Assembly: GCA_000025185.1 (NCBI GenBank)
Contig: CP001848.1
Span: 2,970,001-3,002,000 of the forward strand
Origin: Pirellula staleyi DSM 6068
GTDB taxonomy: Bacteria > Planctomycetota > Planctomycetia > Pirellulales > Pirellulaceae
Length of the DNA: 32,000 nt
Direction: 5' to 3'
The notes beneath the pieces are model-generated. The model made no database searches. It was given only the letters and a program-made list of their open reading frames with translations, and was not told the DNA's origin. The translations under genes were made by a program, and so were the position numbers. This document shows positions 8,456 through 30,932 of this stretch, in pieces (within the stretch, counting starts at the first letter, position 1; each line of letters begins with the position of its first letter).

Positions 8456-10261
8456 ATGAACCGACGACTGAAAGCCACTGCGGTGGCCCTGGCATTTTTA
8501 TCGATGATGGCACCGACGCTCAACCTGCAAGCGCGGGGTGGCGGTGGTGGACGAGGCGGAGGAGGCGGGGGTGGAGGCCGCGTTGGTGGCGGAGGTGGCG
8601 GCATGTCGCGACCTTCCCCATCGATCAGCCGCTCGCCATCGATGAGCCGCCCGAGCCCATCGCGTCCCTCGGCGGGAATGTCGCGCCCCTCGACACCGTC
8701 GCGTCCATCGATTCCGACCACACGTCCTTCAACCGGTTTTTCTCCCGGAAGTCGGCCCGGTTCGGTCGATTTCGCGCGTCCTTCCACTCGACCGGGGATC
8801 AGCAATCCGGGGCTCACGCCAGGTACGCGTCCGGGCATTTCGCAGCTCCCCAGTTCGCCGCGCCCCGGCATCAGCACCCGTCCCGGTGTCGGTCCAGGCA
8901 TAGGTGGGCCAGGCATTGGCGCCCCTGGTATTAGTCAACTTCCGTCGACCCGCCCGGGGATTGGCTCGGGGGGCGTCGGGACTCGTCCTGGATTTCCTGG
9001 GAACAGCACGGCGCAGCTGCCAGGTCTCGGGAATCGTCCCGGGATCGATGGCACACGTCCGTCGCAGCTTCCCGGTCGTGGCACGCCGCAAGAGCGTCGC
9101 GGGGATCTTGAAAATCGTCTAGCGCAGCGTGATCAAAATCGTGATCAGTTTCAAAACAACCGCGATCAGATTCGTGAAGACTGGCACGATCATTACGACA
9201 ACTTCTACGATCGTCACGACGACTGGCATCACGGCTGCTGGAACGGCAACGCCAGCGATTGGTGGCATCACATGTGGGACGATCACACCGCCCTCATGGC
9301 GTTTGGAACGACGATGTGGGGGATCAATCGTTTAGCCTACGGTTTTGGATACTGGGGTTATTCGAATCCGTATTACACCGAGTCGTATCCGATTGGTGGT
9401 GGAGCTGCGATCGACTACTCGCAGCCGATGGCGATGGAACCTGAACCAACCACCGCCTCCGATGCGCCGCCGCCGGGGATGGAATATTTCGATGCAGCGC
9501 GGCTCGCCTTCTATCAAAAGGATTATGCCACCGCGCTTGCGCAAACCAACAAAGCGCTCGGCGCGATGCCCAACGATCCGATCATCCACGAATTCCGCGC
9601 GCTCGTGCTGTTTGCTCAGGGTGGCTATAAGGAATCGGCGGCAGGGCTGTATAGCGTCCTCTCGGCCGGACCGGGCTGGGACTGGACGACCCTCATCAGC
9701 CTCTATCCCGATCTCGATACCTACACCGCGCAGCTGCGGAAGCTGGAAGACTACGTGCGAGCCACGCCCGAGTCTCCCGACGGAAACTTCGTCCTCGCTT
9801 ATCACTACCTGACAGGTGGCAACAAAGATGCCGCCACCGCGCGGCTGAAGGTCCTCTACAAACTGATGCCGCAAGATAAGCTCGTGCAAGAGCTGCTGCT
9901 GATGACCGGTGGCCCGGCAGCGATCGGTGCCGAGGAAACGGTTGCCCCGACCCCCAGCACACCGGTTGCTGCGATCCCGCTGCAGTCGCTAGCTGGGAAG
10001 TGGACCGCAATGTCGGCCTCGAGCAAGTTTGTGCTCGAGATCACCGCCGATGGCAACTTCACCTGGAGCTATTCGCAAGGAACAGCAACGCAAACGGTGA
10101 AAGGGGTCGCTGCGATCGATGGCAACGTCCTGGCGCTCGAGCCTGAATCGGGGGGCGTGATGCTGGCGGAAGTCACCTCGCCCGCTGGCGGCAGTTTTGA
10201 CTTCCAGATGCTCGGCACACCGCCGGGTGATCCTGGACTCAAGTTCACACAAGCTCGCTAA
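8456..10261 (+). CDS. Secreted low-complexity (Gly/Arg, then Ser/Pro/Arg/Gly) protein with a TPR-like helical domain and a small C-terminal beta domain
   Basis: Signal peptide MNRRLKATAVALAFLSMMAPTLNLQA. It is followed by a poly-Gly/Arg run, about 200 aa of SRPS / TRPGI-type repeats, and a His/Trp/Asp-rich block (DWHDHYDNFYDRHDDWHHGCWNGNASDWWHHMWDDH). Next comes a TPR-like segment (FDAARLAFYQKDYATALAQTNKALGAMPNDPIIHEFRALVLFAQGGYKESA...) and the C-terminal GKWTA...FTWSY domain. Confidence 0.75.
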   Translation: MNRRLKATAVALAFLSMMAPTLNLQARGGGGGRGGGGGGGGRVGGGGGGMSRPSPSISRSPSMSRPSPSRPSAGMSRPSTPSRPSIPTTRPSTGFSPGSRPGSVDFARPSTRPGISNPGLTPGTRPGISQLPSSPRPGISTRPGVGPGIGGPGIGAPGISQLPSTRPGIGSGGVGTRPGFPGNSTAQLPGLGNRPGIDGTRPSQLPGRGTPQERRGDLENRLAQRDQNRDQFQNNRDQIREDWHDHYDNFYDRHDDWHHGCWNGNASDWWHHMWDDHTALMAFGTTMWGINRLAYGFGYWGYSNPYYTESYPIGGGAAIDYSQPMAMEPEPTTASDAPPPGMEYFDAARLAFYQKDYATALAQTNKALGAMPNDPIIHEFRALVLFAQGGYKESAAGLYSVLSAGPGWDWTTLISLYPDLDTYTAQLRKLEDYVRATPESPDGNFVLAYHYLTGGNKDAATARLKVLYKLMPQDKLVQELLLMTGGPAAIGAEETVAPTPSTPVAAIPLQSLAGKWTAMSASSKFVLEITADGNFTWSYSQGTATQTVKGVAAIDGNVLALEPESGGVMLAEVTSPAGGSFDFQMLGTPPGDPGLKFTQAR

Positions 10262-17024: not shown

Positions 17025-17840
17025 CGCCGCTTGAGACGGGATAGCGTTGGCCGACTACAGGACGAAAACTCCAGCCGCACGCATCGCGCGACAGGTTCTC
17101 GCCCACGCATTTTGTAATACTGCTCGCTGCTCAATAAAAGCAGCAAAACGGCTGGAATTTCGAATCCACACCCCGCGAAGGTCGCTCCCTACCGTTTCTT
17201 TCCTACACGCTGAACCATCGGCACGCTCCACTTCTTCGCCCGGAAGTGATTGGCTCTGTAAAGGCCGCTCGCAGCTGCGCATCGCCGCACAGAACCAAAT
17301 CTCACGGAATTTCTCGCGTCCCATGGCGATCACCCACCGCTCAGCGCTTCGCCTCTCGCAGAGGCTTCCGCTCGTTTCCCTTGTCTGCCTGCCCCTTGAG
17401 GCGCGCGTATTTGACTCACATTGCCCGCCAACGCGCGCTAAAGTGCACGTTGGTGCTCACTCGGCCCAGTGCCGCTGAACAACGGTGATCGTCTATCGAA
17501 ATTGTGGCTGTCCTCTCGGCCGAGTCGGGATCTTCTCAGTCGCCAGCCACCCACGCTGCCGTAACTCGCTGCTGGTACGACGAAATCGGCCGCGCGGCTC
17601 TTTGCCACGATCAGTCGCTCGGCGATCGCTTGCCCGCCATTGCGACACATTCGCGCGCCGCGCGGCTGTGCGGTATGACGTTTGCAACTTGGTGGAGTGG
17701 TAATCAGCAGCGCCAAGCCTGGTGCTCGCGACTTCGCCTGCTGATAACCGCACGCGCTTTGCGCATCTGCGAATCGCGCGCGAAGCTGGCGCCTCTCCGC
17801 CGGTTCGACAGCCGCACTTGTCTAGGAAAGAAGGACTCCG

Positions 17841-20337: not shown

Positions 20338-20410
20338 TGGTCAGGGCCGGAGTTGAACCGGCGACACATGGATTTTCAGTCCATTGCTCTACCAACTGAG
20401 CTACCTGACC
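20338..20410 (-). tRNA. tRNA-Phe (anticodon GAA)
   Basis: The reverse complement folds as a 73-nt cloverleaf. Acceptor GGTCAGG/CCTGACC, D-arm GCTC-AGTTGGTA-GAGC, anticodon arm ATGGA-CTGAAAA-TCCAT (GAA), variable loop GTGTC, T-arm GCCGG-TTCAACT-CCGGC, discriminator A. CCA is not encoded. Confidence 0.93.
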
Positions 20411-25186: not shown

Positions 25187-27061
<1,875 letters not shown>

Positions 27062-27091
27062 CCACTCAGCGGCAAGGTTGGACTACGACTC

Positions 27092-27262
27092 CCTTAGCAA
27101 TCGATGTCGGGTGGTCTTGGGTCACACTGGCAAGCTTGCCAGGACAGAAGCTGGGACCGATGTGGTGGGTGAAATCTGCCTGAAAGGTAGGGCTCATCGA
27201 CAATTCATTGGGTAGAGCTTAGTGGAACACACGCTTGAAGCCTGCTGGTTGCTGCCTGACAT
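27092..27262 (+). repeat. Copy A of a structured intergenic repeat element (candidate ncRNA, 3'-UTR element or REP/MITE-like element)
   Basis: By hand alignment it matches 29631-29819, with cores 27105-27260 and 29656-29811 about three-quarters identical. Four helices are shared. These are a closing helix (27104-27111 with 27255-27262) and three hairpins: 27127-27142, 27166-27182 and 27206-27224. It lies 31 nt after the ABC ATPase stop, in a convergent intergenic gap. Confidence 0.6.
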
Positions 27263-27293
27263 TCGTCGATAGACGGTCTACCACAGCATTCAT

Positions 27294-28160
27294 CTACAGT
27301 GGCCGCTGTGGCCGACGCTCGCGCGAAAACTGCTGCTCGATATCGTCGATCTCGTGCTGCTCGCCATCGATGTCGTCGAGCCGGATCAGGTCTTCAATCA
27401 TTCCGGCCGTATCGCTGGCAGTTTGCGACAGCCGATTGATCCAGAGCGATTGCAGGATGCCGGTCGAATCGAACAGCTCGTCCCGAAAACATCCGAGCAC
27501 ACTGGTGGCGATCCGTTCGTTGAGATCGGCGTTCGGAGTCGGCTCGGCCTGGAGCGAGCGGAACGAGGCCCGCAGCGAAGCAATCGCCAGTTGCTGCGAA
27601 AGATCGTTCATCGCGGGGGAACTGGCCAGTTCGAAATCGGCGGCGAATTCTTTCACGCGCGTCGGCTCGAAAGCGAGTGGCTCGATGTCGATCGACGAAG
27701 CGAAGTGGGCCAGCAGCATATCGCACCAGCGCTCGACGCGCCGCCGGAGCCGGTTGAGCGCCACCGCTTCCCCAAAATCGAAACCCCGTCCGAGAAGAAT
27801 CAAACTCAAGACCCGATTGCGCGCCTCCTGATGCCCCATCATCACGCTCCGCGCGATCGGTTCGACTTCCGCTTCCCCTTGCACTCGGTCGTAGGCAATC
27901 GCTGCTGCGGTGAAGGTGCGGGTGAGGAGTTCGCTCGCCAGCACTTCTTCGAGAATCACCCGCAGACGCTGATAGTCGTGCGGGATTATCGCCGTATCGG
28001 TCGAGCGCGGGATTATGCGCTGCCAGCGCTCGAGGCGACATTTCGAGGCGGTCCAGTACTGCTCGAGGGCACTCTTCGGAATCCGTCCCATGCCACTGGC
28101 GAGTACTTTGCCATGCAGGGCCACCAAGGCACCAATTTCCACCAGCTGGCGAGCATGCAT
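27294..28160 (-). CDS. Hypothetical protein (289 aa, predicted all-alpha, no recognisable motif)
   Basis: The ORF is open to 28460, but the ATG at 28160 (MHARQLVEIGALVALHG) is preceded by GAGGA with a 6-nt spacer. The in-frame upstream part is Arg/Cys/Trp-rich and not protein-like. The sequence has helical heptad-like composition and an acidic C-terminus (EDLIRLDDIDGEQHEIDDIEQQF). Confidence 0.6.
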   Translation of the reverse strand: MHARQLVEIGALVALHGKVLASGMGRIPKSALEQYWTASKCRLERWQRIIPRSTDTAIIPHDYQRLRVILEEVLASELLTRTFTAAAIAYDRVQGEAEVEPIARSVMMGHQEARNRVLSLILLGRGFDFGEAVALNRLRRRVERWCDMLLAHFASSIDIEPLAFEPTRVKEFAADFELASSPAMNDLSQQLAIASLRASFRSLQAEPTPNADLNERIATSVLGCFRDELFDSTGILQSLWINRLSQTASDTAGMIEDLIRLDDIDGEQHEIDDIEQQFSRERRPQRPL

Positions 28161-28203
28161 GACAAATCCTCGGTCGATCCTGGGAGAGAAGCGTGAACGA
28201 TAG

Positions 28204-28254
28204 ACGACGCTCATCCAAGAGCCCGAGGGGACAAGGGCTCTTGGACAACGTCGT
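28204..28254. promoter_or_regulatory. Composite 16-bp stem-loop or palindromic site in a divergent promoter region
   Basis: The inner perfect 10-bp stem pairs ccaagagccc (28215-28224) with gggctcttgg (28235-28244). The outer 6-bp stem pairs acgacg (28204-28209) with cgtcgt (28249-28254). It lies 44-94 nt upstream of the ATG at 28160 on the minus strand. Confidence 0.35.
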
Positions 28255-28462
28255 ACGGCGGCTCTGCGGCATCTTTTCCTGTGGCAGTCGATACCTGCAA
28301 AGCAACGTACCCGTCCCATTGCACGCCCCGTGCCAAGTGGCGGCTGGCCAGAGGAACTGGTCCCCCAGTTTCCGGCTGCTGAAGCAAGAAAAACTCGGAA
28401 AAAGAGCTTAGAATGGGGAAAAGAATTCCAAGCTACCGAAGTTCGAAGCGAATCCAACAACG

Positions 28463-28495
28463 ACGCCCGCGAAGTCGCGGGCGTTGCCTTTTCGC
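28463..28495 (+). terminator. Orphan rho-independent terminator-like hairpin (end of an sRNA, or a leader attenuator)
   Basis: A 9-bp GC-rich stem pairs acgcccgcg (28463-28471) with cgcgggcgt (28476-28484) around tetraloop aagt, followed by tgccTTTTc. No annotated plus-strand gene lies upstream. It is 170 nt before the phosphoesterase start. Confidence 0.5.
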
Positions 28496-28662
28496 AACAT
28501 CCTGAGGTACTCCCCTGGGGAAAGACTCCACGTGGGACGCGACTTTGCGAGCCCTGCCGAGCGGGAAGCTGCGAGGGCTGCGCCGGTCGGATGATCTCGA
28601 CCGATGCGCGATGAAATCATCGCTACCGATCCAAGGGATTTGTGCTCGACGGAGAAGATGCC

Positions 28663-29145
28663 ATGAAAATTGGGGTCGTCAGTGACACGCATGGGCACAC
28701 GCTCGGAACGCTTGCGGCTGCGCGGATGCTCGAATCGCTCGAACTCAAAACGGTGCTCCACTGCGGCGACATCGGGAGCACAGAAATACCCCAGCTGCTC
28801 GCTCAGTTCGACATGCACTATGTCACCGGGAATGTCGACTACGACCGGGCTGCCTTGGGAGAGGCGATCGAGCGTTTGGGGCAGCATTTTTACGGCCGGT
28901 TTGGCGAAATCGAACTCGCTGGACGCAAAATCGCGCTGCTGCATAGCGACGACCACCTCCGCTTTCGCGAAGTGCAGCTCTCGGGCCAGTACGATCTCGT
29001 TTGCTACGGCCACACGCATCAGCGACTGATTGAGTTCCAGGGTAAAACAATGGTCCTCAATCCAGGAGCGATCTACCGCGCGTCGCCCCACAGCATTGCG
29101 ATGGTCGATCTCGCCACGATGGAGGCCGAGATCATTCCGCTGTAG
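28663..29145 (+). CDS. YfcE/MJ0936-family metallophosphoesterase
   Basis: Starts MKIGVVSDTHGH (motif I). Also has HCGDIG (motif II), GNVD (motif III), LLHSDD and GHTH (motif V). GGAGAAG lies 5 nt upstream of ATG 28663. Confidence 0.85.
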   Translation: MKIGVVSDTHGHTLGTLAAARMLESLELKTVLHCGDIGSTEIPQLLAQFDMHYVTGNVDYDRAALGEAIERLGQHFYGRFGEIELAGRKIALLHSDDHLRFREVQLSGQYDLVCYGHTHQRLIEFQGKTMVLNPGAIYRASPHSIAMVDLATMEAEIIPL

Positions 29146-29238
29146 CACTGCGCGACTCGAAAAAATGAAGTGACGCACGCAGCGCCAGACAGCAAACTCA
29201 CTCCACAACCGTCCTGAATCTCCTCAGAAAATAGTGTA

Positions 29239-29580
29239 ATGGCCAAGTACCTGATCTCCTTTCCGAGCGCTGCGATGGTGGTCCCTGAAGGGGAGTGGGA
29301 CGCAGTGGTTCGCGACTCGCATGCCGTGATCGAAGAGGCAAAAGCTGCTGGGGTCTACGTCTTTGGGGGTGGCATCGACGCAAGTGTCCCCCCGGTTCTC
29401 GTCGCAGCCGACGGAGCAGTCGCCGAGGGGGGCTACCCCTGGGCACCTCCCCTCAACGGCGGCTTCACGGTGCTCGAAATACCGTCGCGCGAGCAGGCTA
29501 TCGCGTGGGCCGCGCGCCTTGCGAAGGCCTGTCGTTGTGACCAGGAGCTTCGTGTCTTCGGGTTCGACCCGCAGTCCTAA
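29239..29580 (+). CDS. YciI-like (YCII-related/DGPF) domain protein
   Basis: 113 aa: MAKYLISFPSAAM...VIEEAKAAGVYVFGGGI...GGFTVLEIPSREQAIAWAARLAKA. The length and the pattern of a C-terminal helix after a 'GGF.v.e..s.eeA' segment fit YCII-related proteins. Confidence 0.7.
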   Translation: MAKYLISFPSAAMVVPEGEWDAVVRDSHAVIEEAKAAGVYVFGGGIDASVPPVLVAADGAVAEGGYPWAPPLNGGFTVLEIPSREQAIAWAARLAKACRCDQELRVFGFDPQS

Positions 29581-29620
29581 TCGCGGCGCAGAAAGCGCGG
29601 CTTAGCACTTCATTCAAGCG

Positions 29621-29636
29621 CCAGGCGGAGCCTTAG
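29621..29636 (+). repeat. 16-nt direct repeat, left copy (ccaggcggagccttag)
   Basis: Identical to 29820-29835. A partial third copy (gcggcttagcacttc) lies at 29597-29611. Confidence 0.8.
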
Positions 29637-29819
29637 TACTTCGTCTATCGACCAATGTCAGGTGTTTTGGGGGCCACTGGCATTTTGCCAGTTCAGAAGC
29701 TGGAACCGATGTTTTGGGCAAAATCTGCCTGAAACATAGAGCCTATTTACACTTCTCACTGGGCAGAGCCCAGTGGCACTCTGGATGGAAGCCTGCTCAT
29801 TGCTGCCTGACTTTGATCT
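29631..29819 (+). repeat. Copy B of the structured intergenic repeat element
   Basis: Homologous to 27092-27262 in the same orientation. Its helices are 29657-29662 with 29806-29811, and hairpins 29677-29691, 29712-29734 and 29757-29775. It starts 51 nt after the YciI-like stop and ends 13 nt before the stop of the convergent oxidoreductase gene. Confidence 0.6.
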
Positions 29820-29835
29820 CCAGGCGGAGCCTTAG
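29820..29835 (+). repeat. 16-nt direct repeat, right copy (ccaggcggagccttag), overlapping the oxidoreductase stop codon
   Basis: Identical to 29621-29636. It contains tta (29832-29834), which is the TAA stop of the minus-strand gene 29832-30932. Confidence 0.8.
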
Positions 29836-30932
29836 GTCAGGAGCGTGAGAGGATTCACGCGCGAGGTGAGTGGAATCCCCACTCGCGCGCCGATGCGCTG
29901 CGACTCCATCACCGCGCTAATCATTTCCACGGTCGTGCGCCCTTCGTACATACTGCACTCGGGCTGCCGATCCTCTTCGATCGCTTGCATCAGGTCGGTG
30001 ACTGCCAGGATGTTGCCACCGGTTTGCCCTTCCTCTTTGATCGGTTCGGCCAGGCCGATTCCGGCAGAAGTGATTGGCTTCCAAGTCGCCTGACTGCGGC
30101 CAGCACTCCAGTTGGGATCGGCAACGAACCAGGCTTTCGGGAGATGGCCGGTGAGCACCTCGACAATCCCTTTGCTCCCGAAGATTTGCACCCCAAAGCG
30201 ATCGCCACGCGCCTCTTTTTGCGAACCGAAGTAGGCCGTGGCTCCCGACGCTAGGCCGAACATTGCATCGACGCGATCCCCCGCCAAAGGGCCGATCCCT
30301 TCAGCTCCTTCGCGCACGTTTTTCTTCGTGATCGGAGCGCCGTTCTCGCGAATCTGCGCAAAGCACCATTCAGGTTCGCCTCCAAAATGATGCACGAGGT
30401 TCAGCACGTGACTTCCCAAGACCCACAAATCTTCGACACCACCGCGCTGATCTTCTTTCCCGCGAGCGCGGTACTCGAGCACCGTCCCGAGCAGACCATC
30501 GCCGATCAGGTCGTGAATCGTTTGCAGCACCGGGCTATAGCGAGTCTGATGCGCGAGGGCCAGTTTGACGTCGGTTTTCTCGCACGCGGCGACAATCGCA
30601 TCCGCTTCCGCCGGGGTTCGGCAAAACGGCTTTTCCATGTAGATATGAATCCCGCGATCGGCCGCCGCGATCGCCATCTCGGCATGCTGATCGAGCCAGC
30701 GGGGACAGATCGCCACGATGTCGGGCTTCGTGGTGTCGAGCAGTTGACGGTAGTCGGCAAACGTTTTTGGAGCTTTCAGCCGCGCTGCTGCAGCGGCCAG
30801 CCCTTTCTCGTCCCGATCAGCCACCCCCACGATTTCGCAGTTCTCCATCCGGAGCCAGACCGTGTCGATGCCGTGGCCGTAGTTTCCACGCCCCGTTTCG
30901 CCGATCACCGCCACGCGATACTTGTGCAACAT
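29832..30932 (-). CDS. Gfo/Idh/MocA family oxidoreductase
   Basis: N-terminal Rossmann segment MLHKYRVAVIGETGRGNYGHG...IVGVADRD...DIVAICPR, then EKPF (MEKPFCRTPAEADAIV) and a C-terminal alpha/beta domain. ATG 30932 has GAGG 5 nt upstream. The ORF-track TTG at 31034 adds a non-typical extension. Confidence 0.8.
   Translation of the reverse strand: MLHKYRVAVIGETGRGNYGHGIDTVWLRMENCEIVGVADRDEKGLAAAAARLKAPKTFADYRQLLDTTKPDIVAICPRWLDQHAEMAIAAADRGIHIYMEKPFCRTPAEADAIVAACEKTDVKLALAHQTRYSPVLQTIHDLIGDGLLGTVLEYRARGKEDQRGGVEDLWVLGSHVLNLVHHFGGEPEWCFAQIRENGAPITKKNVREGAEGIGPLAGDRVDAMFGLASGATAYFGSQKEARGDRFGVQIFGSKGIVEVLTGHLPKAWFVADPNWSAGRSQATWKPITSAGIGLAEPIKEEGQTGGNILAVTDLMQAIEEDRQPECSMYEGRTTVEMISAVMESQRIGARVGIPLTSRVNPLTLLT

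Follow-up and report, generated by a model that had tools for sequence, protein, structure and literature searches.

Why should two gaps between convergent genes in a planctomycete chromosome carry the same non-coding, extensively palindromic sequence? The question arises in a 32,000-nt stretch of the genome of Pirellula staleyi DSM 6068 (assembly GCA_000025185.1, contig CP001848.1, forward strand 2,970,001 to 3,002,000; hereafter the window, numbered from its first letter). A preliminary description, made from the sequence alone, had noted there two diverged direct copies of a multi-hairpin intergenic element, which we call copy A and copy B, and had offered three explanations: a repeat of the repetitive extragenic palindrome (REP) or bacterial interspersed mosaic element (BIME) type, a family of small RNAs (sRNAs) derived from 3' untranslated regions (3'-UTRs), or the borders of a small gene cassette. 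We favour another answer. The two sequences are probably old, decayed copies of a ~195-bp, non-coding, palindromic mobile element of the kind known as miniature inverted-repeat transposable elements (MITEs), a reading to which we assign a probability of roughly 0.6. It is based on terminal inverted repeats (TIRs), direct repeats at the junctions, the lack of coding capacity, empty sites in a related genome, and a mode of evolution that is both near-neutral and concerted.

Two copies of one palindromic unit

A sensitive BLASTN comparison of the window with itself paired positions 27095-27276 and 29646-29827 in a same-strand alignment of 184 nt with 73.4% identity (E = 4e-29), and found no further match to either repeat inside the 32 kb. 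MAFFT gave a concordant alignment of the two copies, and the impression of two diverged, same-orientation copies about three-quarters identical is confirmed as a significant similarity. The long shared blocks that had been picked out by eye are also real, CAGAAGCTGGNACCGATGT, AAATCTGCCTGAAA and GAAGCCTGCTNNTTGCTGCCTGAC each occurring exactly twice in the window against 0-0.16 occurrences expected from shuffles. They carry no extra weight as evidence of constraint: the shared runs measure 10-14 nt, and chance alone should produce a longest run of about 12 nt in a 184-nt alignment that is 73% identical. Both cores first reported are indeed 156 nt long, but the homologous unit is longer, ~194-195 nt once the TIRs are included. 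Coding capacity is absent from both copies, whose longest open reading frames (ORFs) span 44-45 aa in frames that are not conserved between A and B; small ORFs beginning at the ATG of AATGTCRGG (MSG...) were rejected as non-coding on the same ground.

Copy A extends from TIR to TIR over 27087-27280 on the plus strand (194 nt here, 195 nt in other strains), as delimited by blastn and nhmmer against copy B and by comparison of the termini. Copy B occupies 29637-29831, also on the plus strand, and measures 195 nt if its right TIR reaches GGAGCC or 183 nt if it ends before the second of two direct repeats that flank it. The two well-preserved ends lie on opposite sides of the two copies: within the right TIR of copy A (27255-27280, plus strand), positions 27255-27275 match the reverse complement of 29642-29662 in the left TIR of copy B (29637-29662, plus strand; TACTTCGTCTATCGACCAATGTCAGG) at 20 of 21 positions (p<0.0005). 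The left TIR of copy A (27087-27111, plus strand) is decayed in the window strain, with a 1-nt deletion (CCGTCTAG to CC-CTTAG) relative to two close relatives, the strains here labelled L020 and L021, and its computed similarity to the inverted right end of copy B is weak (score 7, p 0.06). The intact form in L020 and L021 reads GACTCCGTCTAGCAATCGATGTCGGG, and the L021 version agrees with the inverted right end of the L021 copy B at 21 of 26 positions in an ungapped hand count. The right TIR of copy B (29806-29831, plus strand) is partly decayed, and its outer part overlaps the second direct repeat. Inverted, it agrees with the left end of the same copy at 17 of 24 positions (p 0.0005), and the window strain's copy A left end and its own inverted right end share just 8 nt (p 0.19). 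The repeats measure 22-26 nt, with a core CCGTCTAKC..AATGTCAGG, which falls in the MITE range of ~15-30 bp. Because the right end of A matches the left end of B at 20 of 21 positions and the left end of A in L021 matches the right end of B at 21 of 26, all four termini are, judged by their sequences, derivatives of a single terminal inverted repeat, with one good and one decayed end per copy. The string CCTTAG upstream of both copies had been considered as a common target motif; in copy A it represents the TIR sequence CCGTCTAG, corrupted in a strain-specific way, and the candidate was dropped.

The interior of the element continues the symmetry of its ends. Copy B is a global imperfect palindrome whose nested arms (29639-29662 with 29806-29829, 29673-29692 with 29758-29777, and 29709-29720 with 29726-29737) share one common centre near 29723-29734, and in L021 the family profile also matches copy B in reverse orientation (E 2.7e-10). 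At the dyad axis of the complete unit stands a central hairpin (29709-29737) with 12-bp arms and the loop AAATC. To its left lies hairpin 1 (29676-29692; ACTGGCA TTT TGCCAGT) and to its right hairpin 2 (29757-29775; CACTGGGC AGA GCCCAGTG), the inverted partner of hairpin 1. In copy A, hairpin 1 is a perfect 16-nt palindrome, CTGGCAAGCTTGCCAG (27127-27142); the central hairpin at the dyad centre (27160-27188, plus strand; loop AAATC at 27172-27176) is weakened in the window strain, and hairpin 2 (CATTGGGTAGAGCTTAGTG; 27206-27224, plus strand) pairs solely via G-U on the plus strand.

This internal arrangement recalls the REPINs and BIMEs, in which an inverted pair of short REP-like palindromes, here hairpins 1 and 2, forms part of a mosaic unit spread by a RAYT (REP-associated tyrosine transposase) or IS200-type tyrosine transposase and not by a DDE transposase. 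The inner hairpins of copy B (CACTGGCA...TGCCAGTG and CACTGGGC...GCCCAGTG) are 17-20-nt imperfect palindromes and mutual inverted partners, 75% complementary and 65 nt apart; the whole unit is able to fold back on itself (L021 copy B), and the terminal repeat holds a CGTC motif (CGTCTATCGAC). CGTC- and GTAG-tagged REP superfamilies and long-TIR repeat families linked to tyrosine transposases have been described, with mention of planctomycetes but not of Pirellula (PMC3733652). The hallmark of REPs, high-copy free-standing palindromes tagged with GTAG or CGTC, was not found here: the CGTC lies in a TIR and does not tag a free-standing REP. Neither the 32-kb window nor the ~40 kb of P. staleyi DNA read in all holds another REP-like unit of this type, whereas REP and BIME families are normally dense; the hairpin motif CACTGG..CCAGTG does not recur in the window outside the elements, and its relaxed version retrieved from the collected loci the elements and one unrelated site. 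No RAYT gene lies in the window, and direct repeats mark the junctions of both copies, whereas REPINs lack target duplications. We consider an origin of this type very unlikely. The earlier suggestion of a REP/BIME-like repeat was the closest in spirit, in that the element is a palindromic intergenic repeat, but its anatomy of long TIRs, junction repeats and ~195 bp is MITE-like.

Proposed insertion sites and their state in relatives

Both copies lie in gaps between convergent genes, as the preliminary description had it, and they share one orientation, each placed immediately behind the stop codon of a plus-strand gene. Copy A follows the gene of an ABC ATPase (25187-27061, plus strand) and faces a 288-aa gene, Psta_2297 (27294-28160, minus strand); copy B follows a YciI-like gene (29239-29580, plus strand) and faces a Gfo/Idh/MocA oxidoreductase gene (29832-30932, minus strand). 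The distance from copy A to copy B is ~2.5 kb, with 2.3 kb bracketed between them.

The same locus was recovered through exact-protein look-ups from assemblies that are 98.3-98.6% or nearly identical to the window, namely L016/L018 (one Logan contig, 4 mismatches in 2.5 kb), L020 (NCBI metagenome-assembled genome GCA_002483025.1), L021, L022 and L023. Both copies and the intervening segment are present in all five of these P. staleyi-like strains. The locus was also found in a sister species, L017, whose flanking proteins are 83-85% identical to those of P. staleyi. There the gap between the ABC ATPase gene and the 288-aa homologue measures 11 nt and that between the phosphoesterase and oxidoreductase genes 14 nt, both without an element, and a profile search found no copy anywhere in 21 kb of L017. 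These two gaps are the empty sites in a related genome that are expected of a MITE.

Direct repeats mark the junctions of both copies. To the left of copy B, the 16-nt sequence CCAGGCGGAGCCTTAG (29621-29636) is repeated exactly at 29820-29835, on the right, where it contains the stop codon of the oxidoreductase gene (TTA on the plus strand). Fourteen of these nucleotides are common to both junctions in strains L020 and L021, and we estimate the chance expectation of a 16-mer repeat in 800 nt at ~7e-5. At the element-free site of L017 a single copy of a related sequence, GAAGGGGAAGTCTTAG, matches the 16-nt repeat at 11 positions by hand alignment. Taken together, the repeat of copy B and the single homologous copy in L017 look like a target duplication, with an alternative reading possible (see below). 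The junction repeat of copy A is shorter: GGACTACGAC on the left (27080-27089) and GGTCTACCAC on the right (27275-27284), the first two bases of the latter overlapping the end of the right TIR. The two sides, GG[A/T]CT[A/G]CGAC and GGTCTAC[C/G]AC, agree at 8 of 10 positions in the window (p ~0.10) and at 9 of 10 in L022 (p 0.007). A further 7-nt repeat, TAGCACT, flanking the insertion of the YciI-like gene (29143 and 29603), was rejected on the ground that 7-9-nt repeats are frequent by chance in that 800-nt stretch.

The relatives bear equally on the idea that the elements are recombination sites bounding a mobile cassette, made up either of the three intervening genes or of the YciI-like gene and copy B as an integron-like cassette with an attC site. 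The copies are direct repeats bracketing 2.3 kb, the YciI-like gene and copy B are both missing from L017, and the YciI-like protein is 85-90% identical across phyla and is found elsewhere in gene runs resembling cassette arrays. Yet in L017, which has neither element, the ABC ATPase and Gfo/Idh/MocA genes still enclose the 288-aa gene and the phosphoesterase gene in unchanged order. The preliminary description had itself stated that the cassette would fall if relatives carried the genes without the flanking elements, and with two of the three genes syntenic in L017 the three-gene version is refuted. The version with the YciI-like gene fares little better: the 16-nt junction repeat brackets copy B alone and not the YciI-like gene plus copy B, no element stands beside YciI homologues in other phyla or at a 79%-identical YciI locus, the segment is kept in all five strains, and the window contains no integrase. 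As an attC site, moreover, the element would be anomalous. By our reading its ends, GTCRGG...CCTGAC, are the inverse of RYYYAAC...GTTRRRY, its ~195 bp exceed the usual attC size (57-141 bp), and the GTTAGGC that L020 and L021 carry in the right end has no R'' partner. The cassette and attC ideas are essentially excluded.

Two of the bracketed genes deserve comment in their own right. The product described as a 289-aa orphan is a 288-aa protein that is 100% identical to Psta_2297, and it is no orphan, having 394 homologues in Pirellulales and Thermoguttaceae. Its family (at least 394 proteins) has no Pfam domain, and its gene is divergently paired with that of a Metallophos_2 phosphoesterase in both P. 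staleyi and L017. The YciI-like protein (113 aa) has more than 6,400 homologues, and the cross-phylum relatives just mentioned, which show a remarkable degree of conservation, come from Noviherbaspirillum, Pseudoxanthomonas, Roseateles and Verrucomicrobiota. In three other contigs (L024, L025 and L026) its gene stands in cassette-array-like, same-orientation runs of small unrelated genes, among them those for acetyltransferases, a glyoxalase, DinB and SDR proteins; from these comparisons, the gene is probably horizontally mobile. Downstream of the YciI gene of a Verrucomicrobiota metagenome-assembled genome (L025, 3343-3622; L026, 2365-2644) lies a ~190-nt spacer bounded by an inverted repeat (GGCTGTCTG ... 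AGACAGC), which may represent a further small palindromic element, or else a site of recombination, and whose sequence is unrelated to the Pirellula element.

Copy number, strand bias and the RNA alternative

Several observations weigh against a MITE-like origin. Just two copies are known, 2.5 kb apart, and a profile search found no third in ~40 kb of P. staleyi DNA (the window and the extra sequence of L020 and L021). A pattern scan of 185,579 species-representative genomes with CAGAAGCTGGNACCGATGT gave 15 matches in unrelated phyla, against ~17 that we estimate to be expected by chance; none of the 15 carries another block of the element. The scan also failed to return the window's own two copies, and the source genome therefore seems to lie outside the searchable collection. 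A scan of JGI metagenomes with the pattern AAATCTGCCTGAAA..GAAGCCTGC gave a single match (L019), which on reading was due to chance, and pattern scans of IMG/VR gave no match; blastn against plasmids and phages likewise found nothing. No partner insertion sequence with matching ends lies in the window either, and the 15 window proteins scanned against Pfam contain no transposase or integrase domain. The target duplication of copy B is itself ambiguous. The first 6-10 nt of its right repeat can also be aligned as the outer end of the right TIR (10 of 17 against the inverted left end in L021, by hand count), and the true duplication may therefore be the 8-nt AGCCTTAG. At face value the duplication may be 14-16 nt, which is long for a transposase; the 8-nt reading would require a coincidence in the left flank of copy B.

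The last point on this side is an asymmetry between the strands. Transitions between A and B that keep plus-strand pairing are favoured, with 12 that make G-U pairs against 4 that make A-C. When pairs are defined in a strand-neutral way (Watson-Crick, on B), copy A shows 7-12 G-T against 1-5 A-C states; 7-11 pairs are fully broken, and compensation from one Watson-Crick pair to another is almost nil. In neutral simulations from a B-like ancestor, run either strand-symmetrically or with the observed substitution spectrum placed at random positions, the plus-strand stability of copy A was reached in ~1% of runs for the window, 4% for L021 and 19% for L020. The other intergenic DNA in the window has no overall GC skew; enrichment in G and U is confined to the elements. 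Such a plus-strand bias is not what the model of a pure DNA parasite would lead one to expect.

The main rival to the MITE-like reading takes the copies for paralogous structured RNAs of the plus strand. They would then be sRNAs processed from the 3'-UTRs of the ABC-transporter and YciI transcripts, or else structures acting in cis within those 3'-UTRs to stabilise or terminate the messages; the TIRs would serve as the closing helix. To the simulations (p ~0.01 for the window's copy A), the confinement of the G/U enrichment to the elements, and the shared orientation right behind plus-strand stop codons, this explanation adds the folding itself. The minimum free energy of the plus strand lies at -64 to -69 kcal/mol, the best copies having z values of -3.0 to -4.4, and copy A folds well on the plus strand alone (-63.8 vs -35.3 kcal/mol in the window; z -3.0 vs +0.5). 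A consensus fold of six sequences yields -55 kcal/mol and 58 pairs on the plus strand against -28 kcal/mol and 40 pairs on the minus strand. In the plus-strand consensus 97% of cells are paired and three pairs show changes on both sides, although A and B are in effect the only independent lineages behind this covariation, and the structure itself comes from these same sequences.

We nevertheless regard the RNA explanation as unlikely. Both strands of copy B fold stably (z -2.1 to -4.4), the minus strand nearly as well as the plus strand, as is expected of a DNA palindrome. Complementarity between the ends is weaker within copies than across them, the match of the B left end to the A right end exceeding that of copy A's own two ends, which argues against selection on an RNA closing helix. 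The folding excess in L020 is not significant (p 0.19), and the elements are missing from the sister species with the same genes. At the gathering threshold, Rfam 15 matched only a tRNA in the window (20338-20410), and in a search of 26900-30000 with E up to 10 the best match overlapping an element was mir-726, at the chance-level score of 20.6 bits against a gathering threshold of 76; the statement that the element is not a described RNA family holds for Rfam 15. Neither element contains a sigma-70-like promoter or a hairpin with a U-tract, and the sole terminator-like site in 26800-30100 lies at 29187-29171 on the minus strand.

Divergence among strains is also of the kind shown by ordinary intergenic DNA. 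Between the window and L020, genes are 1.1% different and intergenic regions 0-9.7%, with a length-weighted mean of ~4.4% that includes both element gaps. The copy A gap is 6.4% and the copy B gap 4.5% diverged, within the intergenic range, and the elements therefore evolve like unconstrained intergenic DNA. Strain differences touch 16 of the predicted base pairs, and for 10 of these at least one strain has lost the pairing. The plus-strand bias in the divergence between A and B is real but modest, and is not accompanied by constraint at the strain level. The sRNA family proposed at the outset retains the plus-strand folding bias in its favour; with no Rfam match, promoter or terminator and with divergence at a neutral rate, it is not supported. 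A sliding-window impression that the elements are mutation hot spots was given up once all intergenic regions had been compared, the 4.5-6.4% of the element gaps falling inside the overall spread. At its upper end stands 17025-17840, between an RND membrane-fusion gene and the PEPCK gene, at 9.7% between 98%-identical strains; the divergent-promoter region between the 288-aa and phosphoesterase genes (28161-28641) is only 1.0% diverged, as low as coding sequence.

The strains further suggest that the copies have exchanged sequence. In L021 the loop of hairpin 1 (ATCTT) is identical in copies A and B and unlike that of both window copies. In L022, a tract of ~40 nt around hairpin 2 of copy A (strain ERR12155856, 4977-5208) shows the states specific to B, a 2-nt insertion among them, and a perfect 10-nt palindrome, CTCCGCGGAG, has newly arisen in this copy. 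Because B-like tracts occur in copy A of both L021 and L022, the mosaic structure of copy A indicates gene conversion, by its sequence pattern, between the two copies or from unseen copies. Contig L016 opens with 22 nt (AGCAAATTCCCAGGCACAATTG) that do not agree with the window sequence ahead of copy A's hairpin-1 palindrome; they are probably an assembly tip at that strain-polymorphic palindrome. Several short-read contigs (L016, L022 and L023) end at or inside the elements, at strain-polymorphic or palindromic sequence.

Elsewhere in the window, a solo terminal repeat was considered at 17489-17540, which shares CGTCTATCGA, and rejected, its score of 14 lying within the null distribution (median 13, 90th percentile 15). 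The start of the window lies inside an RTX calcium-binding repeat protein (103-618; HemolysinCabind, four repeats), and a Gly-rich coding repeat of GGNGGN type lies at 8533-8600.

Probable origin of the element and its likeness to known families

A search of the literature on MITEs and repeats in Pirellula and other planctomycetes found no description of this element. With no Rfam match and nothing in the searchable literature, the family appears to be undescribed, but its kind is well known: Correia/NEMIS of Neisseria, ERIC/IRU and YPAL of enterobacteria and RUP of Streptococcus pneumoniae are listed together as a MITE group (PMC3733652). On the MITE-like reading that we favour, a putative transposase supplied in trans would have recognised the terminal repeats, and one copy would have been inserted into each of the two convergent-gene gaps after P. 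staleyi and its sister species had separated. Such gaps are sites where an insertion does little harm. After insertion the copies would have drifted to 73% identity, with the exchange of short tracts by gene conversion continuing between them. Since each copy now lacks one good terminal repeat, both are probably immobile. Their position just behind the 3' ends of plus-strand genes makes read-through transcription probable. The read-through transcript would fold as a stable multi-hairpin RNA (~ -64 kcal/mol), and this RNA may have gained a weak secondary role as a structure that protects or terminates 3' ends.

A related scenario gives the RNA more weight. In it, the element is a structured RNA module, MITE-derived or independently mobile, that is under plus-strand selection, with substitutions compatible with G-U pairing preserving a fold that protects or terminates the 3' ends of convergent units. 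We hold this to be distinctly unlikely. As far as we could find, such 3'-end signals are undescribed in planctomycetes, a phylum for which we know of almost no characterised RNA elements.

If the MITE-like reading is correct, its consequences are mainly those of routine annotation: P. staleyi would have a small, apparently undescribed MITE-like repeat, to be masked as a repeat and annotated neither as an RNA gene nor as a cassette boundary. The elements would mark recent insertions in the P. staleyi lineage and would illustrate that repeats with 73% identity and a separation of 2.5 kb can undergo gene conversion. They would also caution that the closing helices of 'multi-hairpin intergenic RNAs' may be transposon ends. 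For the plus-strand folding bias to matter, transcript data would have to reveal a defined RNA, in which case we would be looking at a mobile element exapted as a 3'-UTR structure.

Set beside known systems, the Pirellula element shares with structured 3'-UTR elements and 3'-UTR-derived sRNAs its position right after plus-strand stop codons and a stable, G-U-rich plus-strand fold. It differs from them in that a defined promoter and terminator are missing, conservation stops at the species, change among strains proceeds at a neutral rate, and the dyad symmetry of copy B folds on the opposite strand too. With REPINs and BIMEs it has in common two inverted, short imperfect palindromes with a spacer, folding into a single long hairpin, and an intergenic site between convergent genes; REPINs, in contrast, are ~70-110 nt long, lack long TIRs outside the REP units and lack target duplications, and occur in high copy beside a RAYT gene. 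Among long-TIR bacterial MITEs that fold as RNA, the element compares with Correia/NEMIS, ERIC/IRU, YPAL and RUP. These families are non-coding, 100-300 bp long and bounded by TIRs of 15-30 bp, and they are imperfect palindromes whose co-transcription yields stable hairpins. Found between genes, often immediately downstream of one, they carry short target duplications and vary in presence or absence between close relatives. They reach tens to hundreds of copies, and for some of them the partner transposase is known or the target is a defined short sequence, as TA is for Correia. The Pirellula element stands apart from them in its two known copies, its lack of a known partner and its junction repeat of 8-16 nt, and resembles them in size, TIRs, palindromic structure, intergenic 3' position, junction repeats, and presence or absence between relatives.

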